Positions 7,302 through 36,924 of a stretch of 64,000 bases of DNA are shown one piece after another (the first letter of the stretch is position 1; every line of letters begins with the position of its first letter). The stretch is taken from contig CAVVDC010000012.1 in NCBI GenBank assembly GCA_963746855.1, forward strand, positions 100,230-164,229. The letters run 5' to 3'. Source of the stretch: an uncultured Chloroflexia bacterium (GTDB lineage Bacteria; Chloroflexota; Limnocylindria; Limnocylindrales; CSP1-4). The notes beneath the pieces were generated by a model that was not told where the DNA came from, did not search any database, and was given only the letters and a program-made list of their open reading frames with translations. Both the position numbers and the translations under genes were made by a program.

Positions 7302-7326
7302 CCCCCTCCGCGCCACATACGGGACC

Positions 7327-7359
7327 CCAGAACGCCCCGGCCCAGCCGGGGCGTTCTGG
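7327..7359 (+). terminator. stem-loop downstream of the secreted-protein gene (14-bp perfect stem)
   Basis: CCAGAACGCCCCGG-cccag-CCGGGGCGTTCTGG lies 26 nt after the stop at 7301. There is no clear U-tract, which is common in GC-rich genomes. Confidence 0.5.
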
Positions 7360-7518
7360 ATTCGGGGCGCGGCGGGCCGGCCCGCGGCGGCGTCAAACGA
7401 TCGTGCACTTGTCAGGTGCAGGATCTCGACGAACCCCTCGTGGTCCGATCCCCAAACGACAGATCTCGCCGCCATCAGGCAGCGACCACGCTCGTCTGTC
7501 CGAGATGTGCACCTCAGT

Positions 7519-7617
7519 GGCGCGGCCCGGCTGTTCCCAGGGCAAGGCGGAGGGGAGCACGTGAGCGAGCGCACTCCGACGTGCGTGAGCGAGCGCGCGC
7601 AGCCGACAACGCCGCCC
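7519..7617 (+). repeat. intergenic repeat, copy A (about 95 nt; a 31-nt core is identical to copy B)
   Basis: GGCAAGGCG..GAGCAC..GAGCGAGCGCACTCCGACGTGCGTGAGCGAG....ACAACGCCGCC aligns with the reverse complement of 41408-41512. It lies between convergent genes. Confidence 0.6.
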
Positions 7618-7637
7618 TGGGGCGGCCCGGCCGCGCC

Positions 7638-21776: not shown

Positions 21777-23413
21777 GGAAGACCCTCTTCGGAGCGAGGT
21801 GCGACGAACGCGACGGCGACGCCGTTGATCTCGGCGCCGTGGAGCTTGTTGACCGCGACCAGGTACGCGTCGAGCGACGCCTCGATGATGTTGGTCGATA
21901 ACCCGTGCCCGGAGACGACGAGCGCGCCGGGCCCTTCGTCCGACGAGCGGCGGCAGCGGACCAGCACCTGGCCCTGCGCGTCCTCGCCGGCGGAGACCGC
22001 CTTGATCTCGTATTCCGTGAGCGTCGGATGCCAGCCGAGGATGGGCTGCAGGGCCTGGTCGACGGCGTCGAAGAGCGCGTCGACCGGACCGTTGCCGGTC
22101 GCCTCGGACGTTCGTTCCTGCCCGTCCACCGTGAGCGAGATGGAGCCCGTGGCATTCCCGCCGTGCGACGAGGTCACGCTCCAGCCGACGAGCGACACCG
22201 ATGCCGGCACCTCCGCGGCGCGCTGTTCCATGAGCGCCATCAGGTCGGCGTCGGTGACTTCCTTCTTCGCGTCGGCGAGCGTGACCGCCTGGCGGTAGAG
22301 CTCGTCGAGCGCCTCGCCCTCGAGGTCGTAGCCGAGCTCCTTCATCTTGCCCTGGAGGCCGCGCCGCCCGGACAGCTTGCCGATCGTCAGCTGGCTGCCG
22401 GACAGGCCCACCGACTGCGGCGTCATGATCTCGTAGGTGAGCGGGTTCTTGATGACGCCGTCCTGGTGGATCCCGGATTCGTGCGCGAAGGCGTTGCCAC
22501 CGACGATCGCCTTGTTAGGCTGGACCGCGAAGCCCGTCAGGTAGCTGACCAGGCGGCTGGCCGCGGTGATCTGCTCGGTCGCGACGCCCGACGCCCCGCG
22601 CTCGAACTGGGTCGGGCGGGTCCGGAGGGCCATGACGACCTCCTCGAGCGAGGCGTTGCCGGCTCGCTCGCCGAGGCCGTTGATCGTGACCTCCACCTGG
22701 CGCGCGCCGGCCTGGACGGCGGCGAGCGTGTTGGCCGTGGCGAGGCCCAGGTCGTTGTGGCAGTGGACGCTGACCGTCGCCTGGTCGCCCACGAGGTCCA
22801 CGACGCGCTTGGTCAGCAGGCCGAACTCGGCGGGGATCGCATATCCGACGGTGTCGGGGATGTTGACCGTCGACGCCCCGGCCTCGACGACCGCCTCGTA
22901 GATCCGCATGAGGTAGTCGACATCGGTGCGCGAGGCGTCCTCGGCGCTGAACTCGATCTCGGCGTCCCGGCCGAGCTGTTCGCGGCCGTAACGGACCCAG
23001 CGGACCGCCTCCTTGAGGGCCGTCTCGCGGTCGATCCGCAGCTTGTGCTTGAGGTGGATGTCGCTCGTGGCGATGAAGACGTGGAGGTGTGGCCGCTCCG
23101 CGACTTTGATGGCCTCGATCGCGCGCTGCGGATCGCCGTCCTTGCAGCGGGCGAGCGCCGCCACGGCGATCCCGCCCTTCGTCTCCTGGGCGATGCGGCG
23201 GACCGCCTCGAAGTCGCCGGGCGAGGCGGCCGGGAAGCCGGCCTCGATGACATCGACCTTGAGCCGGACCAGCTGGCGGGCGACCTCGAGCTTCTCGGCC
23301 GCTGTCAGGCCGGCACCGGGCGCCTGCTCCCCGTCGCGCAGGGTCGTATCGAAGATGCGGACGCTCCCCGCCGGCACGAACGGGCCGGCGGGCCGCGGTA
23401 CGGCCGGGCTCAC
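21773..23413 (-). CDS. leuA: 2-isopropylmalate synthase
   Basis: [18 protein letters not shown]..., [17 protein letters not shown], and a C-terminal regulatory domain. GTG 23413 overlaps the ilvC stop (GTGA). The track's longer ORF overlaps ilvC and was trimmed. Confidence 0.9.
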
Positions 23414-24462
23414 CGCGACGCTCCCGGGGTCGTGGCCGCGGCCTGGGCCTGGCCGGCCTGGACCTCGACCGGGTTGAGGAACGGCATCTGGGCGCGGAGG
23501 CGGCTGCCGACCCGCTCGATCAGGTGATCGTGGTCGGCGGCCCGCAGGCGCTCGAACTCGACGCGGCCGTGCTCGTTCTCCTCGATCCAGCGGTTCGCGA
23601 ACGACCCATCCTGGATCTCCTTGAGGACCTGCTGCATCGTCTCGCGGACGTGGCCGTCGATGATCCGGGGGCCACTCACGTAGTCGCCGTACTCGGCGGT
23701 GTCGCTGACGCTGAAGCGCATGAAGTTCAGCCCGCCGCGGTACATCAGGTCGACGATGAGCTTGAGCTCGTGCATGGTCTCGAAGTAGGCCAGCTCCGGC
23801 TGGTAGCCCGCCTCGACGAGCGTCTCGAACGCCATCTTGACCAGCGCAGCGGTGCCGCCGCACAGGACCGACTGCTCACCGAACAGGTCGGTCTCGGTCT
23901 CCTCGGCGAAGGTCGTCTCGAGGACGCCGGCCCGGGTGGAACCGATGGCGCGGGCGTAGGCCAGCGTCCGGTCGCGCCCCGTCCCGGACTGGTCGCGATG
24001 GACCGCGAACAGCGACGGCACCCCGCCGCCCGCCTGGTAGACGCTGCGGAGCAGGTGGCCCGGGCCCTTCGGCGCGACCATCCCGACGTCGACGATGCCG
24101 GGCGGGTCGATGCGGCCGAAGTGGATGTTGAAGCCGTGGGCGAACATCAGCAGGTGGCCTGGTCGCAGGTTCGGTTCGATCTCCGCGTCGTAGACGGCCT
24201 TCTGGGCCGTGTCGGGGACGAGGATCATGATGACGTCCGCGGCCTGCACGGCCTCCGCGACGTCCATGACCCGCAGGCCCGCATCGGCCGCGATGGCCCG
24301 GCTCTTCGATCCGGGCGCGAGGCCCACGACGACGTCGATGCCGGATTCGTGGAGGTTCAGGGCGTGGGCGTGGCCCTGGCTGCCATACCCGATGATGGCC
24401 ACGGTCTGACCGGCCAGCGCCGACGGGTCGGCGTCGTTGTCGTAGTACATGCGTGCCGTCAT
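23410..24462 (-). CDS. ilvC: ketol-acid reductoisomerase
   Basis: [33 protein letters not shown]... is a class I KARI. Confidence 0.95.
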
Positions 24463-25067
24463 CGCTTGATCGCCTCCTCGATGGATCCGGAGCCCCGGGC
24501 CATGACGACGGCGCCGGTGCGGACCAACTCCTTGATGCCGTAGTTGCGGACGAGCGCGACGAACGCGTCGATCTCGGCCTCGGTGCCGGTGACCTCGACG
24601 ACCACCGAGCCGTCGGCCATGTCGACGACCCGGCCGCGGGACAGCTCGACCAGGCGCAAGACCTCGGCCCGGTTCGACTCGGTCGACCGGACCTTCACAA
24701 GCGCGAGCTCGTGCTCAACGGTCGGCTCGGACGTGACGTCCTGGACCTTCAGGACGTCGATCAGCCGGTAGAGCTGCTTCGCGGCCTGCTCGACCGCGAC
24801 GTCGTCGCCGTGGAGCGTGATGGTCATCCGGCTGGTGTCCGGCCGGTCGGTATGGCTGACTGCGAGCGAATCGATGTTGAAGTTGCGGGCGCGCATCAGG
24901 CTGGCCACCCGGTTCAGCACGCCCGGTTTGTCCAGCACGATCGCGATGAGGACGTGGCGACGGTGCTCGCCGCCGCCCGGCAGGGCCCGCGGCGGCGGAG
25001 CCGCGTGGGCCGGACCGCCGGCCGCGGCGCCCGGGAGCTGCCCGTTCGAGTTCGGGTCGGCGGTCAT
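24459..25067 (-). CDS. ilvN: acetolactate synthase small (regulatory) subunit
   Basis: [33 protein letters not shown] (ACT domain). ATG 25067 overlaps the ilvB stop (ATGA). Confidence 0.9.
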
Positions 25068-26965
25068 TCGTCCGCCCCGCCCCACTTCTCGATCAGGTCG
25101 GACAGCCCCTTGCCGGCGGGCATCATCGGGAAGACGTTCTGCTCCTCGGCGATCTCGAACCAGATGAGCGCCGGCCCATCGACCGCCTGGGCGGCCTCGA
25201 TGGCGGGGTCGACCTCGTCGGGCGTCCGCGCCCGGAACGCCGGGATCCCGAAGGCGTCGGCGAGCTTCGCGAAGTCGGGTCCGGGCAGGTTGGCCGAGTG
25301 GTAGTTGCCCGCGTAGATGATCTCCTGCCACTGGCGGATCATCCCGAGCTTCTTGTTGTCCAGCAGCGCGATCTTGACCGGGATGTGGTCGGCGACGAGG
25401 GTCATGAGCTCCTGGAAGGTCATCTGGAAGCCGCCGTCACCGGTGATCGCCCAGGCCTCGCGATCGGGTCGCCCGAGGGCCGCCCCCATCGCCGCCGGGA
25501 CGCTGAAGCCCATCGTGCCCAGCCCGCCGGAACTCACGTGGCTGTTCGGGTGGCGGAAGCCGGCGTAGCGCGCCAGCCACATCTGGTTCTGGCCGACGTC
25601 GGCGATGTAGGTCGCGTCGTGATTGGTCAGCTCACCGATCCGCTCCACGACGTAGTCTGCCGAAAGCAGGCCGTCCCGCCAGGCGCCCGAGCCATGCCAG
25701 GACGACGCGACCGAGTCCGCCTTCCACTCGGCCAGCTGATCGAAATAGGGCTGCCGGACCGCGGGATCGACCTCGTCGACCAGTCGGGTCAGGCCGACCA
25801 GGACCCGCTTCGCGTCGCCGACGATGGGCACTTCGACGGCCACGTTCTTGCCGATCTCGGCGGGGTCGATGTCGGCGTGGATGATCCGGGCGTACGGGGC
25901 ATACGTCCGGACGTTGCCCGTGACGCGGTCGTCGAAGCGCATGCCGATCGCGATGAGCAGGTCGGCGGTCTGGATCGCCCGGTTGACGTGCTTCCAGCCG
26001 TGCATGCCCATGTAGCCGTAGGCCAGGGGGTGGGTCTCGTCCATCGCCCCGATACCCAGCAGGGTCCACGCGACCGGGATCTGGGTCTTCTCGGCGAAGG
26101 CGCGGAGCTCGTCCCAGGCTTCGGCATGGAGGACGCCGTGTCCGGCCAGGATGATCGGGCGCTCGGCCTTCGCGATCTCGGCCGCCGCGAGCTTCAGCTG
26201 GCGGGGATGGCCATCCATGTTCGGTCGGAAGCCCGGCAACCCGGCGACGATCTCCTCCTCGCTCGGATGCTCGGCCCGGGTCTCCTGCTGGAGGGCGTCC
26301 TTGGTGATGTCGATGTGGACCGGGCCTGGTCGACCGGTCCGCGCGATATGGAAGGCCTCGGCGACCACGCGCGGCAGCTCGTCGGCATCGCGGACCAGGT
26401 AGTTGTGCTTGGTCATCGGCAGGGTGATGCCGTTGATGTCGATCTCCTGGAAGGCGTCCTTGCCGATCAGCGCGCCCGGCACGTTGCCGGTGATGGCGAC
26501 CATCGGCACCGAGTCCAGGAGGGCCGTCCCGATGCCGGTCACGAGGTTCGTCGCGCCCGGTCCCGAGGTGCCCATGCAGACGCCGACCCGACCGGTGACG
26601 CGCGCGTAGCCGTCCGCGGCGTGGGCCCCGCCCTGCTCGTGGCGGACCAGGATGTGGCGCAGCTCCGGGTAGTCGCCGAGGACGTCGTAGAGCGGCAGGA
26701 TGACGCCACCGGGATAGCTGAAGAACACGTCCACGCCCTGGCGCAGGAGCGCCTCGCACAGCACGTCCGCGCCGATGCGCGTCCGCTTCAGGTCGCGCGC
26801 CTCGTGGAGCATGCCCTTGCGGGCGCGCTCGACGGCCGCCGCCCCGGCGGTGCCATCACCGGGCACGTGGCTCCGCCGGGTCGCCGGCTTGGTCGCGGCG
26901 TCGGCCCCGGTCTTGGACGCGCCCTGACCCGGTGGCCTGGACGGTTCGCTCTTCGCCATCGTCAT
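25064..26965 (-). CDS. ilvB: acetolactate synthase large subunit
   Basis: ThDP enzyme motifs (GYPGGVILPLYD, GTSGPGATNLVTG, GLGTMGFSVPAAMGA, ITGDGGFQM). Long N-terminal extension of the kind seen in actinobacterial IlvB. GAAGGGA lies upstream of ATG 26965. Confidence 0.9.
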   Translation of the reverse strand: MTMAKSEPSRPPGQGASKTGADAATKPATRRSHVPGDGTAGAAAVERARKGMLHEARDLKRTRIGADVLCEALLRQGVDVFFSYPGGVILPLYDVLGDYPELRHILVRHEQGGAHAADGYARVTGRVGVCMGTSGPGATNLVTGIGTALLDSVPMVAITGNVPGALIGKDAFQEIDINGITLPMTKHNYLVRDADELPRVVAEAFHIARTGRPGPVHIDITKDALQQETRAEHPSEEEIVAGLPGFRPNMDGHPRQLKLAAAEIAKAERPIILAGHGVLHAEAWDELRAFAEKTQIPVAWTLLGIGAMDETHPLAYGYMGMHGWKHVNRAIQTADLLIAIGMRFDDRVTGNVRTYAPYARIIHADIDPAEIGKNVAVEVPIVGDAKRVLVGLTRLVDEVDPAVRQPYFDQLAEWKADSVASSWHGSGAWRDGLLSADYVVERIGELTNHDATYIADVGQNQMWLARYAGFRHPNSHVSSGGLGTMGFSVPAAMGAALGRPDREAWAITGDGGFQMTFQELMTLVADHIPVKIALLDNKKLGMIRQWQEIIYAGNYHSANLPGPDFAKLADAFGIPAFRARTPDEVDPAIEAAQAVDGPALIWFEIAEEQNVFPMMPAGKGLSDLIEKWGGADE

Positions 26966-27008
26966 CGGTCGGGTCCCTTCTCTGGTTTCGGTTCGGTCCG
27001 GACAAACA

Positions 27009-27040
27009 GAAGACCCTCGCCACCCGGCGAGGGTCCCTTC
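27009..27040 (-). terminator. intrinsic terminator 36 nt upstream of the ilvB start (candidate attenuator)
   Basis: Minus strand: GAAG-gg-ACCCUCGCC-gggu-GGCGAGGGU-CUUC followed by UGUUUGUC. This leaves no room for a separate ilvB promoter. Confidence 0.6.
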
Positions 27041-27061
27041 GGTCTTCGGTGGTGTCGGGCG

Positions 27062-27295
27062 CTACGAGCGCTCGTTCCTCCGCGTTCCTCGGTCCCGCCG
27101 GGAGCCGCTAATAAGGCCGAGAAGGCCATCAAGCCCCGGAATCGAGCGAAGGAGTTCGAGGAGGGATACGTCGGCGAGGCCCGCGGGCTCGATCGGCACA
27201 TGGACGCGACGACCGTCCGTCGTGACGACGACGGCGACCTGTCGACGATCCTGTCGATCGAAGCGACCCAAGCTGGCCTCCCGGTTGCGCTTCAT
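27062..27295 (-). CDS. candidate leader/small ORF upstream of ilvB (77 aa from ATG 27295; TTG 27352 also possible)
   Basis: MKRNREASLGRFDRQDRRQVAVVVTTDGRRVHVPIEPAGLADVSLLELLRSIPGLDGLLGLISG... contains a Val run and a Leu/Ile-rich block that uses the otherwise rare CTT/ATT codons. GC3 is lower than in neighbouring genes, so coding status is uncertain. Confidence 0.3.
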   Translation of the reverse strand: MKRNREASLGRFDRQDRRQVAVVVTTDGRRVHVPIEPAGLADVSLLELLRSIPGLDGLLGLISGSRRDRGTRRNERS

Positions 27296-27362
27296 CGCCC
27301 AGCGACCGGACGACGTGTGGCGCAGTCTACGAGGCAGGCCGGCATCGTGCAACCCGTACGAA

Positions 27363-29063
27363 TCATGTGGGCATCGTCCGCAGTCGTTCGATGAGCCAGT
27401 CGGCGCCCTTGACGAGGTTCGGCAGGTCGATCGACTCGGTCGACGGGCGATCCGTCGGGCGGCCGAGCAGGTACCCCTGGCCGGCCCCGATGCCGAGCGA
27501 TCGGACGACCTCGAGTTGGGCTGGTGTCTCGATCCCCTCCGCGACGACGAGGGCGCCCCAACGGTCGGCCAGGTCGCGCAGGGTCTTGACGATCTCGAGT
27601 GACGTCTCGCGGACCGCGCCGCCCTGGACGAGCGACAGGTCGATCTTGACGATGTCGAAGCGCAGCTGGCTCAGGAGCCGCAGCCCGGCATTACCGGCTC
27701 CGACGTCGTCCGCGGCGAGCCGGATGCCGGCGACCCGGCAGGCCTCGCATGCCCGGCGCAGCCGGTCGACGTCCTCGACGGCCTCGCGCTCGGTCAGCTC
27801 CAGGACGATCAGCCGCGGATCCAGGCCGTGTCGGACGATCATGCGCAGCAACGCGTGGACGCTGAAGTCGTCGCTCTCGAGCGTGCGCGGCGACAGGTTG
27901 ACCGTCAGCGACCCGGGCAGGCGCAGGCGGGCCGCCGTCTCCATGACGGTGTTGAGGCAGGCGATGTCGAGCTCGCTCGTCCGCCCTGTCGCCTCGGCGG
28001 CCTCGAACAGCGATCCGGGGTCGTTGAACCCGCTGTCGGGCAACGGCCGCACGAGGCCCTCGTAGCCGCGCGGCGCGCCGGTCGACAGGTCGAAGATCGG
28101 CTGGAAGACCGCCCGGATGGCGCCGGTCGCGGCGACCTGCGCGACGGCCGCCGAGAGCTCGGCCTGCGGACGCTCGGTGACGTGGTTGTCGTGGCGCGCG
28201 GCGTCGTAGATGGTCACGCACGTGCGGCCGTGGCGCTTGCTCCAGAAGAGCGCGCTGTCGGCCTGCCGGTAGAGGGCCTCGCGGTCCTTCGCGGGGGTGG
28301 GCCCGGCACCGATGCCCGCCGAGAACGAGACCGTGTGCGCGGCGCCACGACCGGTCTCGCCGTCGAGACATGCGGCGAGCAGCCGGCGGACCATGACCTG
28401 GGCGCCCTCGGTGTCGGTGTCCGCGAGGATCAACGCGAACTCATCGCCGCCGATCCGGAACGCCCGATCGGAGCGGCGCATGTAGGCCGCCATCGTGGTG
28501 GCGGCCTGGCGCAGGACCTGGTCCCCGGCGGCGTGGCCGCTGGAGTCGTTGATACGCTTGAAGTCGTCGAGGTCGAGCAGGGCCAGGGCCATCGAACGAC
28601 CTGTCCGGACGGCGAGCGCCCACTGGCGCTCCATCTCCTCCTGGAACGCCCGGTGGTTGCCGAGGCCGGTGAGCGTGTCCCGGAGCGCCTCGGCTCGGGC
28701 GCGGTCGTAGGCGTCCTCGAGGATGCGACGGCCCTCCTCCAGTCGTTCGGCCGGTTCGAGGACGCGGCGGGCGAGCCAGACGGTGAGGGCGCCGAGGAGC
28801 AGCGCCATCGAGATGAGGGCGACGGTCGGCACGATGAGGGAGGTGCCCGATCGTGCGGTCAGGCCGTAGATGAACGGCGCCGCGATGAGGATCGGGATCG
28901 CGAACATGATGATGAGCGCGAGGAACAGGCGAAGACGGACCAGTCGCAGGTTCGTCGACTCGCCTAGGAGCACTTCCGGAGCCGATGGATCGTCGCGGAT
29001 GGTCCTCTCCCAACGTTGAGTGAGGTCTGTTATAGCCGGGATGGGTTGCCGTCGGACGAACAC
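27363..29063 (-). CDS. membrane-anchored GGDEF-EAL protein (diguanylate cyclase/phosphodiesterase)
   Basis: N-terminal TM helices. RRSD-x5-GGDEF (I-site plus active-site motif), an EAL domain with the variant YEGLVRP, DDVGAG, EGIETPAQL, QGYLLGRP. Confidence 0.9.
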   Translation of the reverse strand: MFVRRQPIPAITDLTQRWERTIRDDPSAPEVLLGESTNLRLVRLRLFLALIIMFAIPILIAAPFIYGLTARSGTSLIVPTVALISMALLLGALTVWLARRVLEPAERLEEGRRILEDAYDRARAEALRDTLTGLGNHRAFQEEMERQWALAVRTGRSMALALLDLDDFKRINDSSGHAAGDQVLRQAATTMAAYMRRSDRAFRIGGDEFALILADTDTEGAQVMVRRLLAACLDGETGRGAAHTVSFSAGIGAGPTPAKDREALYRQADSALFWSKRHGRTCVTIYDAARHDNHVTERPQAELSAAVAQVAATGAIRAVFQPIFDLSTGAPRGYEGLVRPLPDSGFNDPGSLFEAAEATGRTSELDIACLNTVMETAARLRLPGSLTVNLSPRTLESDDFSVHALLRMIVRHGLDPRLIVLELTEREAVEDVDRLRRACEACRVAGIRLAADDVGAGNAGLRLLSQLRFDIVKIDLSLVQGGAVRETSLEIVKTLRDLADRWGALVVAEGIETPAQLEVVRSLGIGAGQGYLLGRPTDRPSTESIDLPNLVKGADWLIERLRTMPT

Positions 29064-29116
29064 CGTCGTACCGGTGCAGATAGGACGAACGGGTCGCCGC
29101 CGGGCAACACGCCCCG

Positions 29117-29716
29117 GTGCACGCTGCGTCGATGTTCATCCTGTACGGGGTCCTGGTCGGGCTCCTGATCGGCGTCGTGACCGGCGGTTCCGCGGCGTTG
29201 CTGGGCCGGCTCCGCTTCCGCTGGGGCGCCGTCGTCATGCTCGGCATGGCCGCCCAGCTGCTCCTGTTCTCGTCGCCCATCGGTGACGCGCTCGGGCCGG
29301 CGGCGCCAGCGGTGTACATGGCGACCAACGGCGTGGTGCTCGCTGCGGTCGCCCGGAACCTGGCGATCCCCGGGCTGCCGCTGGTCCTGCTGGGGGGCTT
29401 GGCCAACCTGCTCGCGATGGTCGTCAATGGCGGCTACATGCCGGTCAGCCGCGCCGCGCTCGAGGCGATGAACCGGGCGCCGGGCGATGGTGGCTACTCG
29501 AACAGCGCCCTGCTCGACCACGTCCAGCTGGCGCCCCTGACCGATATCTTCGCGATGCCCACCTGGCTGCCGGTCGCCAATGTCTTCAGTGCGGGTGACG
29601 TGCTCATCGGCGCCGGCGTCGCGATCGCGATCGTCGCCGGGATGCACGGCCGCGGGCCACGACTGGACGCGGCCCCGACCGCTCCGGCCGACCCCATTGG
29701 TGCGCCCGGACACTGA
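29117..29716 (+). CDS. DUF5317-like polytopic membrane protein
   Basis: 199 aa with 5-6 hydrophobic helices. NGGYMPVS and FSAGDVLIGAG motifs as I recall them for DUF5317. Confidence 0.65.
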   Translation: MHAASMFILYGVLVGLLIGVVTGGSAALLGRLRFRWGAVVMLGMAAQLLLFSSPIGDALGPAAPAVYMATNGVVLAAVARNLAIPGLPLVLLGGLANLLAMVVNGGYMPVSRAALEAMNRAPGDGGYSNSALLDHVQLAPLTDIFAMPTWLPVANVFSAGDVLIGAGVAIAIVAGMHGRGPRLDAAPTAPADPIGAPGH

Positions 29717-29815
29717 CCCGCACGGGCACGGTGAGTAGGACCATCGCGTCATGGTGACGGGACCATGGTCCGCCCACATTTCGAGGAGGGAACGAAGGCC
29801 GTTTCCGCGATCGCC

Positions 29816-29898
29816 ATCGTCCAGGGCAAACCCGTCGCGAGGCGGGGACGCAAAGCCAGGGATCTCCTTCGGGAGACCGCCCAGCCGCCGTTGACGGT
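29816..29898 (+). promoter_or_regulatory. c-di-GMP-I (GEMM-I) riboswitch aptamer
   Basis: AUCGUC-CAGGGCAAACC-CGUC-GCGA-GGCGGGGACGCAAAGCC-AGGGAUCUCC-UUCG-GGAGACCGCCC-AGCCGCCGUU-GACGGU. The CAGGGCAAACC...GGGACGCAAAGCC core matches the Vc2 riboswitch as I remember it. The P2 helix is capped by a GNRA loop (GCGA), there is a second hairpin, and a closing helix AUCGUC/GACGGU. Confidence 0.7.
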
Positions 29899-29928
29899 CG
29901 TCAGGTGCACAGCCACAAGGTAGGTGCC

Positions 29929-30018
29929 GTGAAGGCGAACCTGGCGCGCTTCACCATGGCCGTGTCGCTTCTGGCGACGATGGCCCTGTCCCTCGGCGCG
30001 GGCATCAAGTGGTATTGA
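29929..30018 (+). CDS. 29-aa hydrophobic micropeptide immediately downstream of the riboswitch
   Basis: GTG 29929 follows AAGGTAGG. The peptide is MKANLARFTMAVSLLATMALSLGAGIKWY (one TM helix after K/R residues). 27 of 29 third positions are G/C, like bona fide genes here. It is below the ORF-track size cutoff. Confidence 0.4.
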   Translation: MKANLARFTMAVSLLATMALSLGAGIKWY

Positions 30019-30146
30019 CCATGAACGTCATGTTCGTGGTCTCTGCCCATGTGCTGTCCGACAGCGGTCGACCCGGACCCGAATCCGGTCATCGCTGGCG
30101 CTGAACTGATGGCGGCCGAGCGACCTCCGGGTCGGTCGGTCCCGCG

Positions 30147-30174
30147 GAGAGCGGCCCCGCCCGGGGCCGCTCTC
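30147..30174 (+). terminator. perfect 12-bp hairpin between the riboswitch-sORF unit and the GGDEF-EAL gene
   Basis: GAGAGCGGCCCC-gccc-GGGGCCGCTCTC followed by TCGATTCC. Confidence 0.5.
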
Positions 30175-30215
30175 TCGATTCCGGGCATAGGACTTTCGGG
30201 TGGGCGTCGAGGAGG

Positions 30216-32894
30216 ATGGTCGGGGCGACACTGACCGCCACGGGACGCCCCAGTCGACGAGCTTGCATGCCCCAACCCTCCGGATCGCCGACATCGACAC
30301 GTTCAGCCGAGCAGACTGACGGACCTCCGCCGCTGACCGCGGCCATGGAACGGCCGCCTTGGCTGGATGCCGCCGTTCGCGTTCGGCTGTTCATCGTCAG
30401 CCTGGTGATCGTCGGGATCTTCGGCTACCTCGCGTTCGTGCGCGACATGGCCCCCGTGCCCGGGGGCATCATGCTGTTCTGGCCCCTGGCGGCCCTGGGC
30501 TTCTACCTGGGCGAGACGAACGTCGTCGTGGTCCATTTCCTGCGCGAGCGTCACTCGTTCTCGCTGAGCGAGCTGCCGGGCGTGATGGGCCTGTTCCTGC
30601 TGACCCCTCCCGACTACGTGCTGGCCTACGTCGTCGGCGCCGGTGCGGCGCTGCTGCTCGATCGCAACCAGTCCGGCGTCAAGCGCGCCTACAACATCGC
30701 CCAGGTCTGGATCTGCGCGATCGTCGGGCTCGTGGTCTTCCATGCGATCGCCGAACCGAGCGGGCAGCTCGTGCCCCGGGACTGGATCGCGGCGTTCGCG
30801 TCAACCGGCGCCACGGCGACCCTCGGTGCGGTCCTGGTCGCCACCGTCATCTCGCTCTCGGGCGGGGCCCCCCAGTTCACCAAGCTGCCCGAGATGATGC
30901 GGTTCAGCACGATGGTCGCGATGGCCAATACAAGCCTGGCGCTGCTGGCGGTCATGGTCATCAAGGAGGACGCGCGATCGGTCCTGCTGCTCGCGGTGCC
31001 GACGGCCATCGTGTTCCTGGCCTATCGCGCCTACATCGGCGAACGGGAGAAGCACGAACGCCTCGAATTGCTGTACGAGTCGAGCCGACTGCTGCACTAC
31101 GCGCCCGAGCTCGACTCGGCCATCGCGGCGCTGCTGGACCACGCTCGCAAGATGTTCCGGGCCGAGCGCGCCGAGCTCCTCCTGTTCCCCGATCCGAACG
31201 GCGAAGGCGCCCTCCGGTCGAGCGCCGGCGGCGCGGCCGGACCCGAGACCATGACGCCCCAGAAGGTGCCGCTCGCCGACTCGCTCCGGGCCCGCGTCCA
31301 GCGCGAGCGCGGGGCGTTCCACGCGACCGTGACCTCGGCGTGGACGCTGCAACCGGAACAGGTCGAAGAGGCGATGGTCGGTCCGCTCGTCGGCGAGCGC
31401 GGCGTCTTCGGCGCGGTGACCATCATCAACCGGCTCGGCGAGGGCAGTCGCTTCGAGGCGGATGACCTGCGCCTCCTGGAGACCGTCGCCAACCAGGCCG
31501 CGGTGGCGCTGGAGAACGGCCAGCTGGAGCAGTCCCTGCACGAGCTGTCCCGGCTCAAGGAGCAGCTCCGCCACCAGGCCTATCACGACTCGCTGACCGG
31601 TCTCGGCAACCGGGCCCTCTTCGTCGAGGAGGTCGAGCGCCGGCTCGCCGGGCCGCGCGACCCGGCGGCGCCGCCGTGCATCGTCTTCCTCGACCTCGAC
31701 GACTTCAAGGTCGTCAACGACACGTTCGGACACCCCTCGGGCGATGAGCTGCTGGTCGATGTCGCCGAGCGCATCGGGGCGGAGCTGCGCGACGGCGACC
31801 TGCTGGCGCGATTCGGCGGCGACGAGTTCGCCGTTCTGCCCGGCGAGGGCGCGAGCGTCGAGGACGCCATGGCGCTGACCCAGCGCATCATCGTCGCCCT
31901 CGAACTGCCATTCCCGGTCGCGGGGACGGACGTCATCGTCGGCTGCAGCGTCGGGATCAGCGTCGCCCGCGGTGGCGAGCTCGTCGACGAGCTCCTCCGC
32001 GACGCCGACGTCGCGATGTACCGGGCCAAGGCGGACGGCAAGCGTCGGGCCGAGGTGTTCGACCCGAAGATGCATCGCTCCATCGTCGAGCGCCACGAGC
32101 TGAACACGGACCTCGGCCGGAGCATCAGCCGCGGCGACCTCGCCGTGCACTACCAGCCGATCGTCGAGCTGACGACCGGCCGGATCGTCGGCGTCGAGGC
32201 GCTGGTCCGCTGGCGTCACCCGACCCGCGGCATCGTGGACCCGGCCGACTTCATCCGGCTCGCCGAGGAAAGCGGCAAGATCGTCGCACTGGGCCGCACG
32301 GTCCTGCAGGCCGCCGCACAGCAGGTCGTGGCCTGGCATCGCCTCCCGGGCCTCGAGACCCTGGCGCTCAGCGTCAACCTGTCGCCGCTCCAGCTCCAGC
32401 ACAAGGGCTTCATCGACGAGGTCGTGGCGGACCTGCGCGAGTCAGGCATCGATCCGGGCGACCTGACCTTCGAGATGACCGAGACCGCGATGTTCCGGGA
32501 CACGCAGGCCACGATCGTCACCCTCGAGTTGCTGCGGGCCCTCGGCGTCCGGATCGCGATGGACGACTTCGGCACGGGCTACTCGTCGCTCGCGTACCTG
32601 CGCCGCTTCCCGGTCGACATCCTCAAGATCGCGCGCGAGCTCATCGGGGCGCCCGGAGAGGCCGAGCGCGAGGCCTGGGCGTTCGCGAAGGCCATCCTCG
32701 CGCTGGGCCGTTCACTCGGCCTGACCGTCGTCGCAGAAGGCATCGAGACCGACGAGCAGCTCCGGATGCTGCGTCGCCTCGGGTGCGAGCTGGGCCAGGG
32801 CTACCTGTTCGGCCGACCGGCCACGGCCAAGGAGATCGAGGCCCAGCTCATCGAAGGCGTGACCGGCCCCCTCGGCCAGCGGGTCACGGCCTGA
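30216..32894 (+). CDS. polytopic membrane GAF-GGDEF-EAL protein (diguanylate cyclase/phosphodiesterase)
   Basis: About 8 TM helices, a GAF-like segment (...[39 protein letters not shown]), RDGD-x5-[38 protein letters not shown]. The start is uncertain: ATG 30345 ([18 protein letters not shown]...) is a plausible alternative. Confidence 0.9.
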
Positions 32895-32964: not shown

Positions 32965-34404
32965 ATGACCCAGCCGCGCACCATCGTCTCGAAGATCTGG
33001 GACGACCATGTCGTCACGCAGGACCCCGGCGCCCCCGCCGTCCTCGCGGTCGACCTGCACCTCATCCACGAGGTCACCAGCCCCCAGGCGTTCTCGGGCC
33101 TGCGGGCTCGCGGGCTGCGCGTCCGGCGGCCGGGGCAGACGGTGGCGACCGCCGATCACTCCATCCCGACGACGCCCCGCGACCTGCCGATCCTCGACGA
33201 GATGGCCGCGGCCCAGGTCCGCCAGCTCGAGACGAATTGCGCCGAGTTCGGCATCCCGCTGCACGGCATCGGTTCGCCGAGCCAGGGCATCGTCCACGTC
33301 ATCGGTCCGCAGCTCGGGCTCACCCAGCCGGGCATGACCATCGTCTGCGGCGATTCGCACACGAGCACGCATGGAGCGTTCGGGGCACTGGCGTTCGGGA
33401 TCGGGACGAGCGAGGTGGAGATGGTCCTCGCGACGCAGACGCTCCTCCAGCGCGATCCCCTGACCTACGAGGTTCGCGTCGACGGGCGGCTGGCGCCCGG
33501 CGTCAGCGCCAAGGACATCATCCTGCATCTCATCTCGCGCATCGGCATCGGCGGCGGGACCGGTCACATCTTCGAATACCGAGGCGAGGCGATCCGGGCC
33601 CTGACCATGGAACAGCGGATGACGATCTGCAACATGAGCATCGAGGGCGGTGCGCGAGCCGGCCTGATCGCCCCGGACGACACGACCTTCGAGTACCTGG
33701 CCGGGCGCCCGCATGCCCCGGCCGGCGCCGCCTGGGACGACGCCGTCCGACGATGGCGAGGCCTCCCGACCGACGATGGGGCGACGTTCGACAAGTCCAT
33801 CGCCATCGATGCCGACGCGCTCGAACCGATGGTCACGTACGGCACCAACCCGGGCATGGGCATCCCCATCACGGGCAACGTGCCGTCGCCGGACGAGCAG
33901 GGCGACCCGGCCCAGCGCCGGGCCCTCGAGCGGGCGCTGGAGTACATGGACCTGCGGCCCGGTCAGGCGATCCTCGGCCAGAAGGTCGACGTCGTCTTCG
34001 TCGGCAGCTGCACGAACGGCCGCATCAGCGACCTGCGCCTCGCGGCCGCCGCGCTCAAGGACCGACACGTCGCCGACGGCGTCCGGCTGATGGTGGTCCC
34101 AGGCAGCGACGAGGTGAAGCGCGAAGCCGAGGCCGAGGGCCTCGCCGAGGTCTTCAAGGCGGCCGGCGCCGAGTGGCGAGAAGCGGGCTGCTCGATGTGC
34201 ATCGCCATGAACGGCGACCAGTTGCGGCCCGGGCAGTACGCCGTCAGCACCAGCAACCGCAACTTCGAGGGCCGCCAGGGCAAGGGCGGGCGCACGTTCC
34301 TCGCCTCGCCGCTCACGGCGGCGGCCAGCGCCATCTACGGGGTCGTCAGCGACCCGCGGCGACTGCCCGGCATCGAGACGCTCGCCGCGGTCGGCGGTCG
34401 CTGA
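32965..34404 (+). CDS. leuC: 3-isopropylmalate dehydratase large subunit
   Basis: KIWDDHVV...[58 protein letters not shown]. Confidence 0.95.
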
Positions 34405-35027
34405 TGGGCGAGCCCTTCACGATGTTCACGAGCAAGGCCGTGCCGATCGCGGCCGAGAACGTCGACACCGACCAGATCGTGCCCGCCCGCTATCTCAAGG
34501 TCACCGACAAGGACGGCCTCGCCGAGGCCCTGTTCCGGGACTGGCGCTTCGAGGAGGACGGATCGTTGAAGGATCCGCCGTTCATCCTCGATCGGCCGGG
34601 CATGGCCGGACGCCAGATCCTGCTGGTCGGCGACAACTTCGGGGCCGGTTCGTCGCGCGAGCACGCGCCGTGGGCCCTGGCCGCCTGGGGCGTCCGAGCC
34701 ATCATCTCGACCTCGTTCGCGGACATCTTTAGCAACAACAGCCTCAAGAACGGGGTGCTGCCGATCGCGGTCGATGCGGCCACGCACGCGCGACTGGTGG
34801 CCCTGCTGCAGGCCGATCCGGACGCCTCGCTGACCGTCGACCTCGCGGAGGGCGGCATGCTGCTGCCGGATGGCTCGACCATCGACTTCGAGATCGATCC
34901 GTTCGCGCGGCAGATGCTCCTTGCGGGCACGGACGAGCTCGGCTACCTCCTCTCGAAGGAGGCCGAGCTCGGCGCATGGGAGGCGGGCCACCCGCCGCAG
35001 ATCGATTCACTCGCCGGAGCGAGCTGA
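34404..35027 (+). CDS. leuD: 3-isopropylmalate dehydratase small subunit
   Basis: ENVDTDQIVPARYLK, GDNFGAGSSREHAPWAL. The ATG overlaps the leuC TGA by 1 nt. It lies inside track ORF 33237..35027. Confidence 0.95.
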   Translation: MGEPFTMFTSKAVPIAAENVDTDQIVPARYLKVTDKDGLAEALFRDWRFEEDGSLKDPPFILDRPGMAGRQILLVGDNFGAGSSREHAPWALAAWGVRAIISTSFADIFSNNSLKNGVLPIAVDAATHARLVALLQADPDASLTVDLAEGGMLLPDGSTIDFEIDPFARQMLLAGTDELGYLLSKEAELGAWEAGHPPQIDSLAGAS

Positions 35028-35038
35028 CCGAGCCTGCC

Positions 35039-35665
35039 ATGGACCGGGCGGAACCCACGACCCGGCGGGCTCGTCTCCGGGCCATGCGTACCCTCCGCCG
35101 GCTCGCCGGCCCACTCAGCCTCGTCATCCTCGTGACCGCGTGCGCCGGCTCGGTCTCCCCGACCGCTCGGCCGCCGGACAAGACCGCGGGCATGCCACCG
35201 ATCTCGATGCCGAGCGCGTCGCCGAGTGCTGACGCCTCGCCGTCCTCCGGCCCGACCAGCCCGGCCACCGACGATCCGAACGCCCCGATCGGCACCGACG
35301 TCCCACCCGGCACGAGCGAGCCAGGCAACGGTCCCGTCATCATCCCCAAGCCGGGCCAGCTCGAGATCCGCCCGGTCAGGCTGGACCTGCTCGCGGCCGC
35401 CGTGGACGGGCGGCACGTCATCGTCACGGCGACCTGGACGAGCGGCGTCGAGCCGTGCTACGTCCTCGACCACGTCTTCGTCGCGCCCGGGGCCCGGTCG
35501 TTCACGATCACCGTGTTCGAGGGTCACGGCCCGGGCGACGACATCTGCATCGAGATCGCCCAGATCAAGCAGACCCAGGTCGATCTCGGGGAGCTCGCCC
35601 CGGGCACCTACACGATCGCCGACAGCCAGCGTGGCGCCGCCCCGATCGAGGTGACGGTCAGCTAG
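35039..35665 (+). CDS. lipoprotein of unknown function
   Basis: Arg-rich N-terminus, then LSLVILVTAC (lipobox), a Pro/Ser-rich linker and a small beta-rich C-domain. Confidence 0.65.
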   Translation: MDRAEPTTRRARLRAMRTLRRLAGPLSLVILVTACAGSVSPTARPPDKTAGMPPISMPSASPSADASPSSGPTSPATDDPNAPIGTDVPPGTSEPGNGPVIIPKPGQLEIRPVRLDLLAAAVDGRHVIVTATWTSGVEPCYVLDHVFVAPGARSFTITVFEGHGPGDDICIEIAQIKQTQVDLGELAPGTYTIADSQRGAAPIEVTVS

Positions 35666-35739
35666 GCTCGATTCGCGCCCGGCGACCGTCTCGCGAGCTG
35701 CCGCCGTCAGGATTCCGGCGCCTGTGCGACGATCGGGCC

Positions 35740-36924
35740 GTGAACCCGCTGGACGTCGTCGCGATCCTGCTGGTCGCCCTCGGAGCGTTCCTCGGCTTCC
35801 GCTCCGGCGCGCTCCCGCAGATCGGTGGGCTCATCGGCGCGATCGGCGGGGCGGCGATCGTCATCCTCGGACTCCCGTTCGTGACCGAGCAACTCGCCCA
35901 GGTCGATGCCGCGCTGCGCCCGTTCCTGGTGCTCGCCGGCCTGCTCATCGCCGTCGCGCTCGGTGAATCGATCGGGTCGACCATCGGTCGCCGGGTCGCG
36001 CGCGGCCTTGGCACTGGCGTGCTCGGAGCGGCCGACCGGGTCTTCGGCTCGTTCGTCGGCGTGGCCCAGGCGGTCCTCATCGTGTGGCTGGTCGGTGGAC
36101 TGCTCGCGTTCGGGCCCGTCGCCCGCCTGACCGAGGCGGCCCAGACGTCGCGGGCCATCCGCGTCCTCAACGCCCTGTTGCCGGCCCCGGGGGAGTTCGC
36201 CGTGGAGCTCGGTCGGCTCCTCGACAGCACGGGCCTGCCGGCCGTCTTCGTCGGCTTCGAGCCCATTCCCGCGCCAGCCGTCGACCGACCCGACGACCCG
36301 ACGGCGCATCGGCTGGCCCAGGCCGCGGTCGCGAGCACGGTGAAGGTCGCGGCGGCCGCGTGCGGCTACTCGTCGGTCGGCACTGGCTTCGCCGTCCGGC
36401 GCGATCACGTCGTCACCAACGCCCACGTGGTCGCCGGGGCGGACCGTCGCGCGGTCCGCGTCACCTCGGCCGACGGACGACTGCTCGATGGCCAGGTCGT
36501 GCTGTTCGATCCCGAGTTCGACATCGCGGTCGTCTACGTCCCGGATCTCGACGCACCTGGGCTGCGGTTCGCCTCGTCCGACCCGGCCCGGGGCGCCATC
36601 GGCGCCACGCTCGGCTATCCGGGAGGCGGTCGCCTCGAAGTGCTGCCGGCCGCGGTCGCCGACGCCTACGCCGCGACCGGTCGCGACATCTACAGCGAAT
36701 CAACGGTCAGGCGCCGCATCCTCGAGCTGCGCGCCGCCATCGACCGCGGCGACAGTGGCGGACCGCTGATCCTGCGCGACGGCACCGTCGGGGGGGTCGT
36801 GTTCGCCGAGGCTCGCTCCGATCCCGACGTCGGGTATGCCCTCTCGCCGACCGAGGTCGCGGCCCGGGTCGCCCCCGCGCTGGACCGGACCGCCCCCGTC
36901 GATACGGGCGCCTGCACCCGCTGA
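35740..36924 (+). CDS. CvpA-domain membrane protein fused to a trypsin-like serine protease (MarP family)
   Basis: GTG 35740 ([20 protein letters not shown]...). Four TM helices, then the catalytic triad contexts [23 protein letters not shown]. Confidence 0.8.

Follow-up and report, generated by a model that had tools for sequence, protein, structure and literature searches.

A c-di-GMP-I riboswitch, a micropeptide gene pair and the membrane protein DUF5317 in a conserved, putative c-di-GMP module of Limnocylindria

A 64,000-nucleotide stretch of contig CAVVDC010000012.1 (the window) from an uncultured Chloroflexia bacterium of the Limnocylindria carries, between ilvB and leuC, a compact group of genes connected with cyclic di-GMP (c-di-GMP). 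The group consists of a gene for a membrane protein of the DUF5317 family, a c-di-GMP-I (GEMM-I) aptamer, two tiny open reading frames (ORF1 and ORF2), and two genes for GGDEF-EAL proteins, one with transmembrane helices at its N-terminus (TM-GGDEF-EAL) and one with a GAF domain (GAF-GGDEF-EAL). The order DUF5317, aptamer, micropeptide genes is conserved among relatives, and DUF5317 and the micropeptide remain neighbors where the aptamer is missing. The reading that we hold, at a little better than even, is that this is a conserved Limnocylindria c-di-GMP module in which the riboswitch would set the micropeptide dosage for a DUF5317 membrane module tied to c-di-GMP turnover.

Results

A c-di-GMP-I aptamer precedes the micropeptide genes

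The DUF5317 profile was used to scan a genome collection, which gave 80 loci (designated by L numbers), all from uncultured Chloroflexota/Candidatus Limnocylindria genome bins. Among the Rfam models, RF03167 (c-di-GMP-I-GGC) fits the window RNA best, scoring 60.8 bits where the gathering score is 59, and a second, lower-scoring match from the same clan, probably RF01051 (c-di-GMP-I), also reaches its own gathering score. Eight relatives score 62–65 bits on RF03167, each likewise with a second same-clan match above its threshold, and the L030 aptamer is assigned to RF01051 with 61.7 bits (threshold 35). The RF03167 scores of the window and the eight relatives are only 2–6 bits over the threshold of that family.

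The RNA has the architecture P1, P1a with a GNRA loop (GCGA), and P1b. Alignment to the Rfam model places the ligand-contact positions at G29825 (model position 10), A29852 (model position 37) and C29888 (model position 75). The G stands before the first P1a pair, the C before the 3′ strand of P1, and the G/A/C triad is present in every copy. We take these positions to be the equivalents of G20, A47 and C92, with numbering and ligand-contact roles as in the Vibrio Vc2 structures. The middle position is diagnostic: the RF03167 consensus reads GACGCGAAgCc, with a G, whereas the window and all relatives have GACGCAAAGCC, with an A, and this core is invariant in the alignments of relatives. Going by the Rfam consensus, 'GGC' presumably refers to this difference. 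The A in place of G at the A47-equivalent position rules out identity with the GGC variant, and because the triad is the canonical G/A/C the aptamer is filed as an ordinary c-di-GMP-I member with c-di-GMP as its predicted ligand.

Across 37 distinct sequences, 92.4% of the cells in the GEMM-I structure are paired and compensatory changes occur in 11 pairs. None of 500 shuffles attains the observed value, and slid controls are 29–49% paired. A covariance model (R1) built from these sequences finds 65 copies in 81 sources (the window and the 80 loci), with full-length copies scoring 79–103 bits and a single copy in the window. By locus, 58 of the 80 have the aptamer. The Rfam matches, the 37-sequence covariation and the R1 score of 93.4 bits uphold an earlier reading of the window (the original prediction), which had called a GEMM-I-like riboswitch at this site.

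ORF1 and ORF2 encode micropeptides

ORF1 sits about 35 nucleotides (nt) 3′ of the aptamer in nearly every copy. The window peptide is V/M-KANLARFTMAVSLLATMALSLGAGIKWY, and the Shine-Dalgarno-like sequence AAGGTAGG lies upstream of its start. It has a basic N-terminus, a single transmembrane helix with small-xxx-small motifs and a G-x-K-W tail; the pattern across relatives is VKANLARFTxAxxLLAxMALxLGAGx[K/R]W(x). In 57 distinct DNA versions the entropies at the three codon positions are 0.56/0.30/0.85, and synonymous changes account for 45% of the codon differences in frame compared with 15% and 5% in the two shifted frames. These statistics identify ORF1 as a real gene for a predicted single-helix peptide under selection at the peptide level.

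ORF2 of the window, MNVMFVVSAHVLSDSGRPGPESGHRWR, starts 2 nt past the ORF1 stop, and in relatives the spacing is 2 nt or the two overlap. A tail of the type [A/S]-G-H-R-W(x) follows 50 of the 57 ORF1 copies, on a body of 9–45 amino acids (aa). At four loci (L033, L034, L036, L039) ORF2 is a transmembrane paralogue of ORF1 (..ALVLEAGxRWx). The tail codons vary synonymously, with Gly as GGT, GGG, GGC or GGA and His as CAT or CAC, which argues that the ORF2 tail is selected as a peptide. Both ORFs share the ending G-x-[K/R]-W. ORF1 matches no Pfam or NCBIfam family, and its exact peptide occurs in public gene calls as an unnamed or hypothetical protein only. That the tiny ORFs arose by chance in high-GC (guanine plus cytosine) DNA is ruled out by the codon statistics together with the zero false positives of the peptide filter described below.

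The riboswitch unit is a mini-operon

Past ORF2 the window has a terminator-like hairpin followed by UCGAUUCC. A strong hairpin (≤ −15 kcal/mol) lies within 300 nt 3′ of ORF1 in 57/57 loci, mostly as a near-perfect GC stem just past ORF2, with a stem sequence that differs from locus to locus and often with a pyrimidine-rich tail. A scan for consensus terminators misses the window hairpin because it has no T-run. On the 5′ side, alignment of 27 intergenic regions between DUF5317 and the aptamer reveals conserved blocks: TAGGAC/GGTAC, aTGGtc, 17 nt, and a TAnnnT-like box. This region is the putative promoter or operator of the riboswitch unit; a sigma-70 consensus scan found no promoter, so the assignment rests on the conserved blocks. 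Folds of essentially all 37 leaders contain a 7-bp hairpin before P1, with compensatory stems GGAGCG/CGCUCC, GAGGAC/GUCCUC and GAAGAC/GUCUUC, and it is either the 5′ stem-loop of the riboswitch transcript, the DUF5317 terminator, or both. The riboswitch unit is a self-contained mini-operon for two micropeptides, and its conserved cargo is the tiny ORF pair.

A TAGGAC box followed by an ATGGTC/ATGGTG box occurs twice, at 29734–29770 and 30183–30235. The first copy lies just past the DUF5317 stop and contains the perfect palindrome GGACCATGGTCC, and the second lies past the ORF2 terminator, 5′ of GAF-GGDEF-EAL. The repeated boxes may be a shared operator or promoter element. The sequence 'ATAGGACTTTC' is conserved 3′ of the terminator in L001–L007.

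The window has one unit, and several relatives have tandem duplications of the aptamer and ORF1, with or without ORF2, about 490–590 nt apart (L009, 8669–8753 and 9157–9241; L017, 8695 and 9282; L050, 8699 and 9226; L048, 8704 and 9271; also L084, L092, L101, L129, L131, L159 and L171). These tandems of whole units are unlike tandem aptamers that serve one common expression platform. Other units are not directly 3′ of DUF5317 (L015, 11915–12123; L033, 10621–10940; L072 and L073, 6150–6464 on the minus strand): one is between GAF-GGDEF-EAL and leuC and others are divergent from DUF5317, indicating that the unit can move as a cassette within the locus. At L014 (8739–8824) half an aptamer (49 bits) runs into the 3′ end of an EAL reading frame (..AIIALGNSLGLP.IVAEGIETPEQLR..), which looks like a deletion or assembly join that removed P1b, the peptides and most of GAF-GGDEF-EAL.

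A candidate expression platform inside ORF1

Codons 1–9 of ORF1 fold into a hairpin, GUGAAGGCG-AACCUGG-CGCgCUUCAC, that buries the GUG start. Synonymous sites of ORF1 are frozen only in codons 2–8 (GCG in 49/49, CTG in 57/57, GCG in 50/52, CGC in 56/57), and those of codons 9–27 vary freely. In the P1b strand of the aptamer, GCCAGG is the complement of the hairpin loop and closing bases, CCUGG(C). The GCCAGG:CCUGGC pairing appears in the unconstrained folds of most leaders, and in the window leader it gives a fold favored by about 10 kcal/mol over the one in which the aptamer is forced. The riboswitch-less ORF1-like gene of L026 does not have the hairpin sequence. These features suggest a coupling between the folding of the aptamer and the structure adopted by the start region.

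Gene order is conserved around the DUF5317-aptamer-peptide block

The original prediction had proposed comparing neighborhoods, and DUF5317, aptamer, micropeptides and GGDEF-EAL genes do co-occur in many related genomes and metagenome contigs. The closest locus, L001, has 97–99% protein identity to the window for ilvB, leuC and the GGDEF-EAL gene. Two arrangements are found, both between leuC and ilvB. Order A, in the window and L001–L023, reads ilvB(−), TM-GGDEF-EAL(−)/DUF5317(+), aptamer, peptides, [GAF-GGDEF-EAL(+)], leuC(+), and six close relatives (L010, L013, L014, L018, L020, L032) are without the downstream GAF-GGDEF-EAL gene. Order B belongs to more distant relatives (for example L030, L034, L038, L059–L063 and L075–L080) and reads leuC(−)/GAF-GGDEF-EAL(+), DUF5317(+), aptamer, peptides, [TM-GGDEF-EAL(+)], ilvB(+). 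The DUF5317-aptamer-peptide block, present in 58 of the 80 loci and usually with c-di-GMP enzyme genes on its flanks, is constant and the enzyme genes are shuffled around it. Two DUF5317 genes occur in one leuC-ilvB locus, before and after GAF-GGDEF-EAL, at L059 (6845–7411 and 8001–8534), L090, L110 and L187.

A reverse test started from the peptide. Metagenomes were scanned with the 26-nt start of ORF1, which returned at least 120 contigs. Both the aptamer and DUF5317 lie upstream of 91 ORF1 copies and share their strand, DUF5317 is missing from six assessable copies, and the others are at contig edges; the order is thus present in about 94% of the assessable matches.

The locus had been described as an island interrupting the branched-chain amino acid genes. 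With GC content uniform and the arrangement kept throughout the class between leuCD and ilvBNC, that description does not hold and a recent horizontal insertion is ruled out. The module is an old resident of the divergent leuCD/ilvBNC gap.

DUF5317 and the micropeptide are paired with and without the riboswitch

About 20 of the 80 loci are DUF5317 paralogues in a context of DinB_2 and 4-hydroxyphenylpyruvate dioxygenase (HPPD) genes, with neither a riboswitch nor a GGDEF or EAL gene. At least nine of them (L026, L028, L031, L035, L046, L049, L052, L062 and L074, all in Limnocylindria) keep a micropeptide gene of the same family 100–350 nt downstream, for example VKAKAMRLATALMLLASTAMTLGAGIRWK and MKMLKLQAVRVLLALGALAASGLALEAGRRWV, in the absence of a riboswitch. 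A filter-free model search of six of these nine loci (L026, L028, L031, L035, L046 and L052) found no aptamer. In L029, L031, L046, L049, L053 and L071 (about 6200–8600) the DinB_2-family gene ends about 10 nt 5′ of DUF5317 in an apparent operon, divergent from an HPPD-like (Glyoxalase/HPPD) gene. DUF5317 has here a second conserved context, one with no relation to c-di-GMP.

Distant DUF5317 genes (35–39% identity) were sampled from a library-wide profile search. In L203 (P0250) a GGDEF-EAL gene overlaps the DUF5317 start and two convergent peptides, ..AAPQKWC and ..AAPAKWF, are present; the P0232 contig has the same overlap, then DUF5317 and a 33-aa gene. L205 (P0182) has a ..AAGAAGKWG peptide followed by a hybrid histidine kinase, and L208 (P0240) a ..GSLGASRKW peptide 5′ of DUF5317. 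L210 (P0237), with 54% GC, has DUF5317 directly followed by MRKWTLLRWLLAVAAIVVAGGAPTKWA and SpoIIE phosphatase neighbors. L202 and L201 (P0147 and P0270) encode DUF5317-GAF(-GAF)-GGDEF fusions, each preceded by a peptide (..VLVLAAPFRWNS and ..VLVLAAPLRW), and on the P0213 contig 4 nt separate DUF5317 from the end of an upstream HD/HD_5 (HD-GYP-type) gene.

A peptide filter requiring a hydrophobic stretch and [K/R]W within three residues of the stop was run over 1.21 Mb. It gave 48 matches beside DUF5317, three more that are genuine second units, and no others. With zero false positives in 1.21 Mb, chance does not explain the adjacency, and DUF5317 and the micropeptide are linked as a gene pair with and without the riboswitch.

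DUF5317 is a predicted five-helix membrane protein

The window protein matches PF17248 at 85.7 bits against a cut-off of 25, spanning profile positions 2–151 of 151. It has more than 1000 homologues, mostly of 190–205 aa, which indicate that ATG 29132 is the likely start, and the library-wide profile search puts the family at about 3,800 clusters at 50% identity. The AlphaFold2 model is of moderate to good confidence (predicted local distance difference test score 79, predicted template modeling score 0.75); it has five long helices and is less confident in the conserved loop at residues 100–150. Invariant polar residues in or near the membrane are N76, N92, N99, D138, N150, D156 and H172. PLTD and SxGD motifs raised the idea of a GxGD/presenilin-like (A24) intramembrane protease, which is unsupported: the model showed no fold similarity to FlaK, PSH or prepilin peptidase structures, and neither a significant fold match nor a sequence match came from the PDB. 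Homology to the N-terminal membrane domains of the two GGDEF-EAL neighbors was rejected, at hhalign probabilities of 0.2% and 0.1%. Our literature search returned no paper that mentions DUF5317.

The two GGDEF-EAL proteins retain their catalytic motifs

TM-GGDEF-EAL has two hydrophobic helices at its N-terminus and the motifs RRSD-x5-GGDEF, EGLVR, NLS, ELTE, DDVGAG, KID, EGIE and QGY. GAF-GGDEF-EAL has RDGD-x5-GGDEF, EALVR, NLS, EMTE, DDFGTG, EGIE and QGY. The GG[D/E]EF active site and the RxxD I-site five residues upstream are present in both (one stretch is RRSDRAFRIGGDEF), and all EAL catalytic positions (E, N, ExxE, DD, K, E(GIE), Q) are retained. TM-GGDEF-EAL deviates in EGL for EAL and in DDVGAG for DDFGTG. 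Judged by these motifs, both proteins are predicted to be competent diguanylate cyclases and EAL phosphodiesterases, in agreement with the original prediction, which had noted RxxD-x5-GGDEF and the EAL catalytic motifs in both and EGLVR in one.

Orthologues of TM-GGDEF-EAL adjoin ilvB in L001–L023, and most of their alignments begin at residue 19–25, so the true start may be about 20 codons downstream of the called one. The annotated divergent starts of TM-GGDEF-EAL and DUF5317 are only about 55–70 nt apart (29064–29131), and even with a start about 20 codons later the divergent control region common to both genes must be very compact. Orthologues of GAF-GGDEF-EAL align from residue 3 of the 30345 start. 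Its N-terminal polytopic membrane domain of about 250 aa has no family in Pfam.

Layout of the locus

The neighborhood was defined by ORF listing together with Pfam and NCBIfam searches of the window proteins. GC content is about 70% and uniform, with no compositional break over 20–40 kb of the window. This high value is no sign of an actinobacterium, as the organism belongs to the Chloroflexota (Ca. Limnocylindria). The five elements named in the original prediction (TM-GGDEF-EAL, DUF5317, aptamer, tiny ORFs with hairpin, GAF-GGDEF-EAL) were all found in that order and at the expected positions by the ORF list, Pfam and Rfam (Table 1).

Table 1. Features of the ilvC-leuD region of the window
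Feature	Coordinates	Strand	Evidence or remark
ilvC	23410–24462	−	flank
ilvN	24459–~24960	−	flank
ilvB (acetolactate synthase large subunit)	25064–26965	−	NCBIfam TIGR00118, E = 4.5e-212; module flank
TM-GGDEF-EAL gene, 566 aa as called	27363–29063	−	Pfam GGDEF E = 2.5e-39, EAL E = 6.6e-47
DUF5317 gene, 194 aa from ATG 29132 (alternative GTG 29117)	29132–29716	+	PF17248, E = 4e-24
Intergenic promoter/operator-like region	29717–29787	+	conserved blocks in 27 aligned intergenic regions
7-bp hairpin GGGAACG-AAGGC-CGUUUCC	29788–29806	+	about 8 nt 5′ of P1; folds of leaders
c-di-GMP-I (GEMM-I) aptamer	29813–29895 (Rfam match 29816–29893)	+	Rfam RF03167, 60.8 bits; model R1, 93.4 bits
ORF1, 29-aa micropeptide, GTG start	29929–30018	+	codon statistics over 57 DNA versions
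ORF1 start-codon hairpin, candidate expression platform	29929–29954	+	−11.1 kcal/mol, z = −2.5
ORF2, 27 aa from ATG (31 aa from GTG 30009)	30021–30104	+	conserved tail [A/S]-G-H-R-W
Terminator-like hairpin, 12-bp GC stem and tetraloop	30147–30174	+	−27.3 kcal/mol
GAF-GGDEF-EAL gene, 849 aa from ATG 30345; ORF open from 30216	30345–32894	+	Pfam GAF_3, GGDEF, EAL
leuC	32965–34404	+	NCBIfam leuC, E = 2.4e-207; module flank
leuD	34407–35027	+	E = 2.8e-54; flank

A minus-strand terminator-like site at 27010–27037, with a 12-bp stem and a T-rich tail, lies about 45 nt 5′ of the ilvB start codon in the gap of about 400 nt (26966–27362) upstream of that gene and is the sole consensus terminator-like site in the region. 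It could be the terminator of the GGDEF-EAL gene or an attenuator in the ilvB leader; neither an Rfam family nor an obvious Ile/Leu/Val-rich leader peptide was seen in the gap. Outside the module, shortly 3′ of leuD, is a gene for a MarP-family membrane serine protease (35455–36924, plus strand; NCBIfam NF033740, E = 3e-92).

Discussion

The model that we prefer has as its core DUF5317 and a single-helix micropeptide of about 29 aa ending in G-x-[K/R]-W, with two such small ORFs in this lineage. The c-di-GMP-I riboswitch would be placed between both partners, and the micropeptide genes would therefore form their own short unit of promoter, 5′ hairpin, aptamer, ORF1, ORF2 and terminator. DUF5317 lies upstream of the aptamer and so is not regulated by it. 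Binding of c-di-GMP would alter the initiation of ORF1 translation, and ORF2 would follow by coupling. The first 26 nt of ORF1 would bury the GUG as a hairpin, and the loop and adjacent bases could alternatively pair with the P1b strand, so that the aptamer's folding and the start region's state would each depend on the other. The ligand could switch ORF1 either on or off. The micropeptides would act in the membrane on DUF5317 as subunit, ligand or substrate, and DUF5317 would in its function go together with c-di-GMP enzymes of the membrane, among them the neighboring pair of GGDEF-EAL proteins, through which a feedback loop is plausible. The original prediction had named DUF5317 and the micropeptide as candidate outputs; they are the best candidates, as the pair persists even without the riboswitch.

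Several observations weigh against this model. In the roughly 20 DUF5317 loci of the DinB_2/HPPD context, out of 80, no GGDEF/EAL gene lies within 8 kb, and other DUF5317 genes adjoin histidine kinases or SpoIIE phosphatases; these neighbors mean that DUF5317 is not exclusively a c-di-GMP component. The two fusions (P0147, P0270) are single-member clusters and could be artefacts of assembly or gene calling. The distant micropeptides share only the motif of a transmembrane helix and KW tail, and their homology is not statistically demonstrable. A Foldseek search of the DUF5317 model against the PDB gave no significant fold, the best E-value of 2.0 belonging to an unrelated nicotinic receptor, and a profile search of PDB sequences gave 0 matches at E up to 10. 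As for the switch, GCCAGG and CCUGGC are both invariant, so that covariation has no bearing on their pairing. For a classical alternative switch, in which the P1 5′ strand would pair with the Shine-Dalgarno/start region, cognate duplexes average −7.3 kcal/mol and non-cognate ones −6.7 kcal/mol, a difference short of significance (permutation p = 0.06), and this switch was not adopted. Forcing the aptamer fold leaves the mean predicted Shine-Dalgarno accessibility unchanged (0.40 versus 0.42).

The original prediction had placed the sensor RNA in a feedback-wired module between the two enzymes. A c-di-GMP-wired module with DUF5317 and micropeptide outputs stands, but the wiring of the sensor to the enzymes does not: the cargo is the tiny ORFs, a hairpin follows them in 57/57 loci, and the GAF gene is absent in six relatives or located upstream of DUF5317. 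In explicit form, that wiring has the riboswitch attenuate the downstream GAF-GGDEF-EAL gene, with the tiny ORFs and hairpin as leader and terminator and c-di-GMP feeding back directly on the enzyme. Aptamer, ORFs, hairpin and GAF-GGDEF-EAL are indeed on one strand in the window and L001–L009, and a hairpin with no long U-tract means that termination could be partial or regulated. We nevertheless consider attenuation unlikely, given the six order A loci without the GAF gene and given order B, in which that gene is upstream of DUF5317 and the gene after the peptides is the other GGDEF-EAL or ilvB. ORF1 is also conserved at full length as a transmembrane protein, ORF1-type peptides occur with their own terminator and without the riboswitch, and 170 nt with promoter-like motifs separate the hairpin from ATG 30345. 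Shared ancestry might account for the synteny in another way, if the riboswitch-peptide unit, DUF5317 and the enzymes were independent and adjacent for historical reasons only. The loci lack independence, as a single class of uncultured bacteria supplies most of the evidence, and DUF5317 retains the leuC/ilvB position at L064 and L067 with riboswitch, peptide and enzyme genes all missing. The adjacency, however, is seen again at 35–39% DUF5317 identity, where gene contexts are unrelated, relative orientations vary and one organism has 54% GC; the pair stays together when rearrangements move the enzyme genes about; and linkage or fusion to GGDEF, EAL and HD-GYP has arisen repeatedly and independently. 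Purely historical adjacency is accordingly the explanation to which we give the least credence.

Two further alternatives accept the pair and assign it another role. The micropeptides might be precursors or substrates and DUF5317 a membrane enzyme or exporter that processes or releases KW/RW-tailed peptides, for instance as a signal peptide whose production c-di-GMP regulates. G-x-[K/R]-W is the most conserved feature and survives in ORF2 even at 9–10 aa, DUF5317 resembles enzymes and transporters in its many invariant polar residues, and the two genes are strictly adjacent across distant lineages. This role is distinctly unlikely in our judgment, since neither the Foldseek nor the PDB profile search returned a protease, transferase or transporter fold, the likeness to GxGD aspartyl proteases is unsupported, and neither a modification enzyme nor an ABC exporter is conserved nearby. 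A toxin role, with the micropeptides as membrane-active agents (type I toxin-like, or like a leaderless two-peptide bacteriocin), DUF5317 as immunity protein and the buried start as a safety catch, would fit a transmembrane peptide of 29 aa that is cationic and contains Trp and small-xxx-small motifs, two peptide genes side by side, a start codon inside a hairpin and an adjoining multi-pass membrane protein. Mobile toxin and bacteriocin loci differ from this stable core-genome site, held class-wide between leuCD and ilvBNC at uniform GC. The neighbors are signaling enzymes rather than exporters, and ORF2 is hydrophilic and very short in most lineages. We regard this possibility as very unlikely.

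A broader proposal goes beyond the Limnocylindria module, and we offer it tentatively, as possible but doubtful: DUF5317 and a KW/RW-tailed micropeptide may constitute a widespread, previously unrecognized two-component membrane signaling device serving GGDEF, EAL and HD-GYP proteins, histidine kinases and SpoIIE phosphatases, with the c-di-GMP riboswitch of Limnocylindria setting the micropeptide:DUF5317 ratio.

The class of c-di-GMP riboswitches is well known, and its outputs are usually adhesins, pili, flagella or enzymes. The window RNA shares with RF01051 the P1, P1a with GNRA loop and P1b with receptor bulge, the core GGCAAACC...GGGACGCAAAGCC, the G/A/C contacts (those of the Vc2 structures), the 5′ leader location and the nearby genes for c-di-GMP enzymes. 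It differs in that the cargo is a tiny ORF pair (29 and 27 aa) rather than a normal-sized gene and the candidate expression platform is inside the coding sequence as a start-codon hairpin; here the class occurs in Chloroflexota, sometimes as tandem whole units about 500 nt apart. RF03167, an orphan variant class from a comparative analysis of riboswitch binding sites, has high overall sequence similarity and is the top-scoring Rfam model, and the window RNA is set apart from it by the A of its G/A/C triad in place of G/G/C.

MgrB and SafA, which act on PhoQ in enterobacteria, are small membrane-protein regulators of membrane sensors. The likeness is in the possible mode of working: a single-helix peptide of about 30–50 aa, expressed under control of the pathway it would modulate, acts in the membrane on a larger signaling protein. 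The window pair has no sequence relationship to them, the partner is DUF5317 rather than a histidine kinase, control would be by a riboswitch rather than a response regulator, and the interaction is a proposal. The bifunctional mycobacterial enzymes DcpA/MSDGC-1 and Rv1354c have the same GAF-GGDEF-EAL order as the window enzyme, which keeps GGDEF, the RxxD I-site and the EAL catalytic motifs intact and adds an N-terminal polytopic domain of about 250 aa unrelated to DUF5317. In our literature search nothing turned up on a micropeptide cargo for c-di-GMP riboswitches, nor on such riboswitches in Limnocylindria. The class itself is known; the micropeptide cargo, the DUF5317-micropeptide pairing and the hairpin embedded in coding sequence are not described in the literature searched.

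The Rfam label calls for caution, as going by the top-scoring GGC-variant model would lead to the mistaken idea of an orphan ligand specificity. Codons 1–9 of ORF1 appear doubly constrained, as peptide and as RNA, which makes them a tractable example of dual coding. The soil Chloroflexota concerned are uncultured, but the hypotheses are testable with synthetic genes in a heterologous host. The conserved output of this riboswitch is a micropeptide pair, a class of gene usually missed by annotation, and its members would define a new micropeptide family recognizable by a transmembrane helix and a G-x-[K/R]-W C-terminus. For DUF5317, the constant micropeptide partner and the recurrent tie to signaling enzymes provide a first functional lead. 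If the broader proposal is true, these bacteria would have a new route of c-di-GMP output, from RNA sensor to micropeptide to membrane receptor to enzyme, with built-in feedback.

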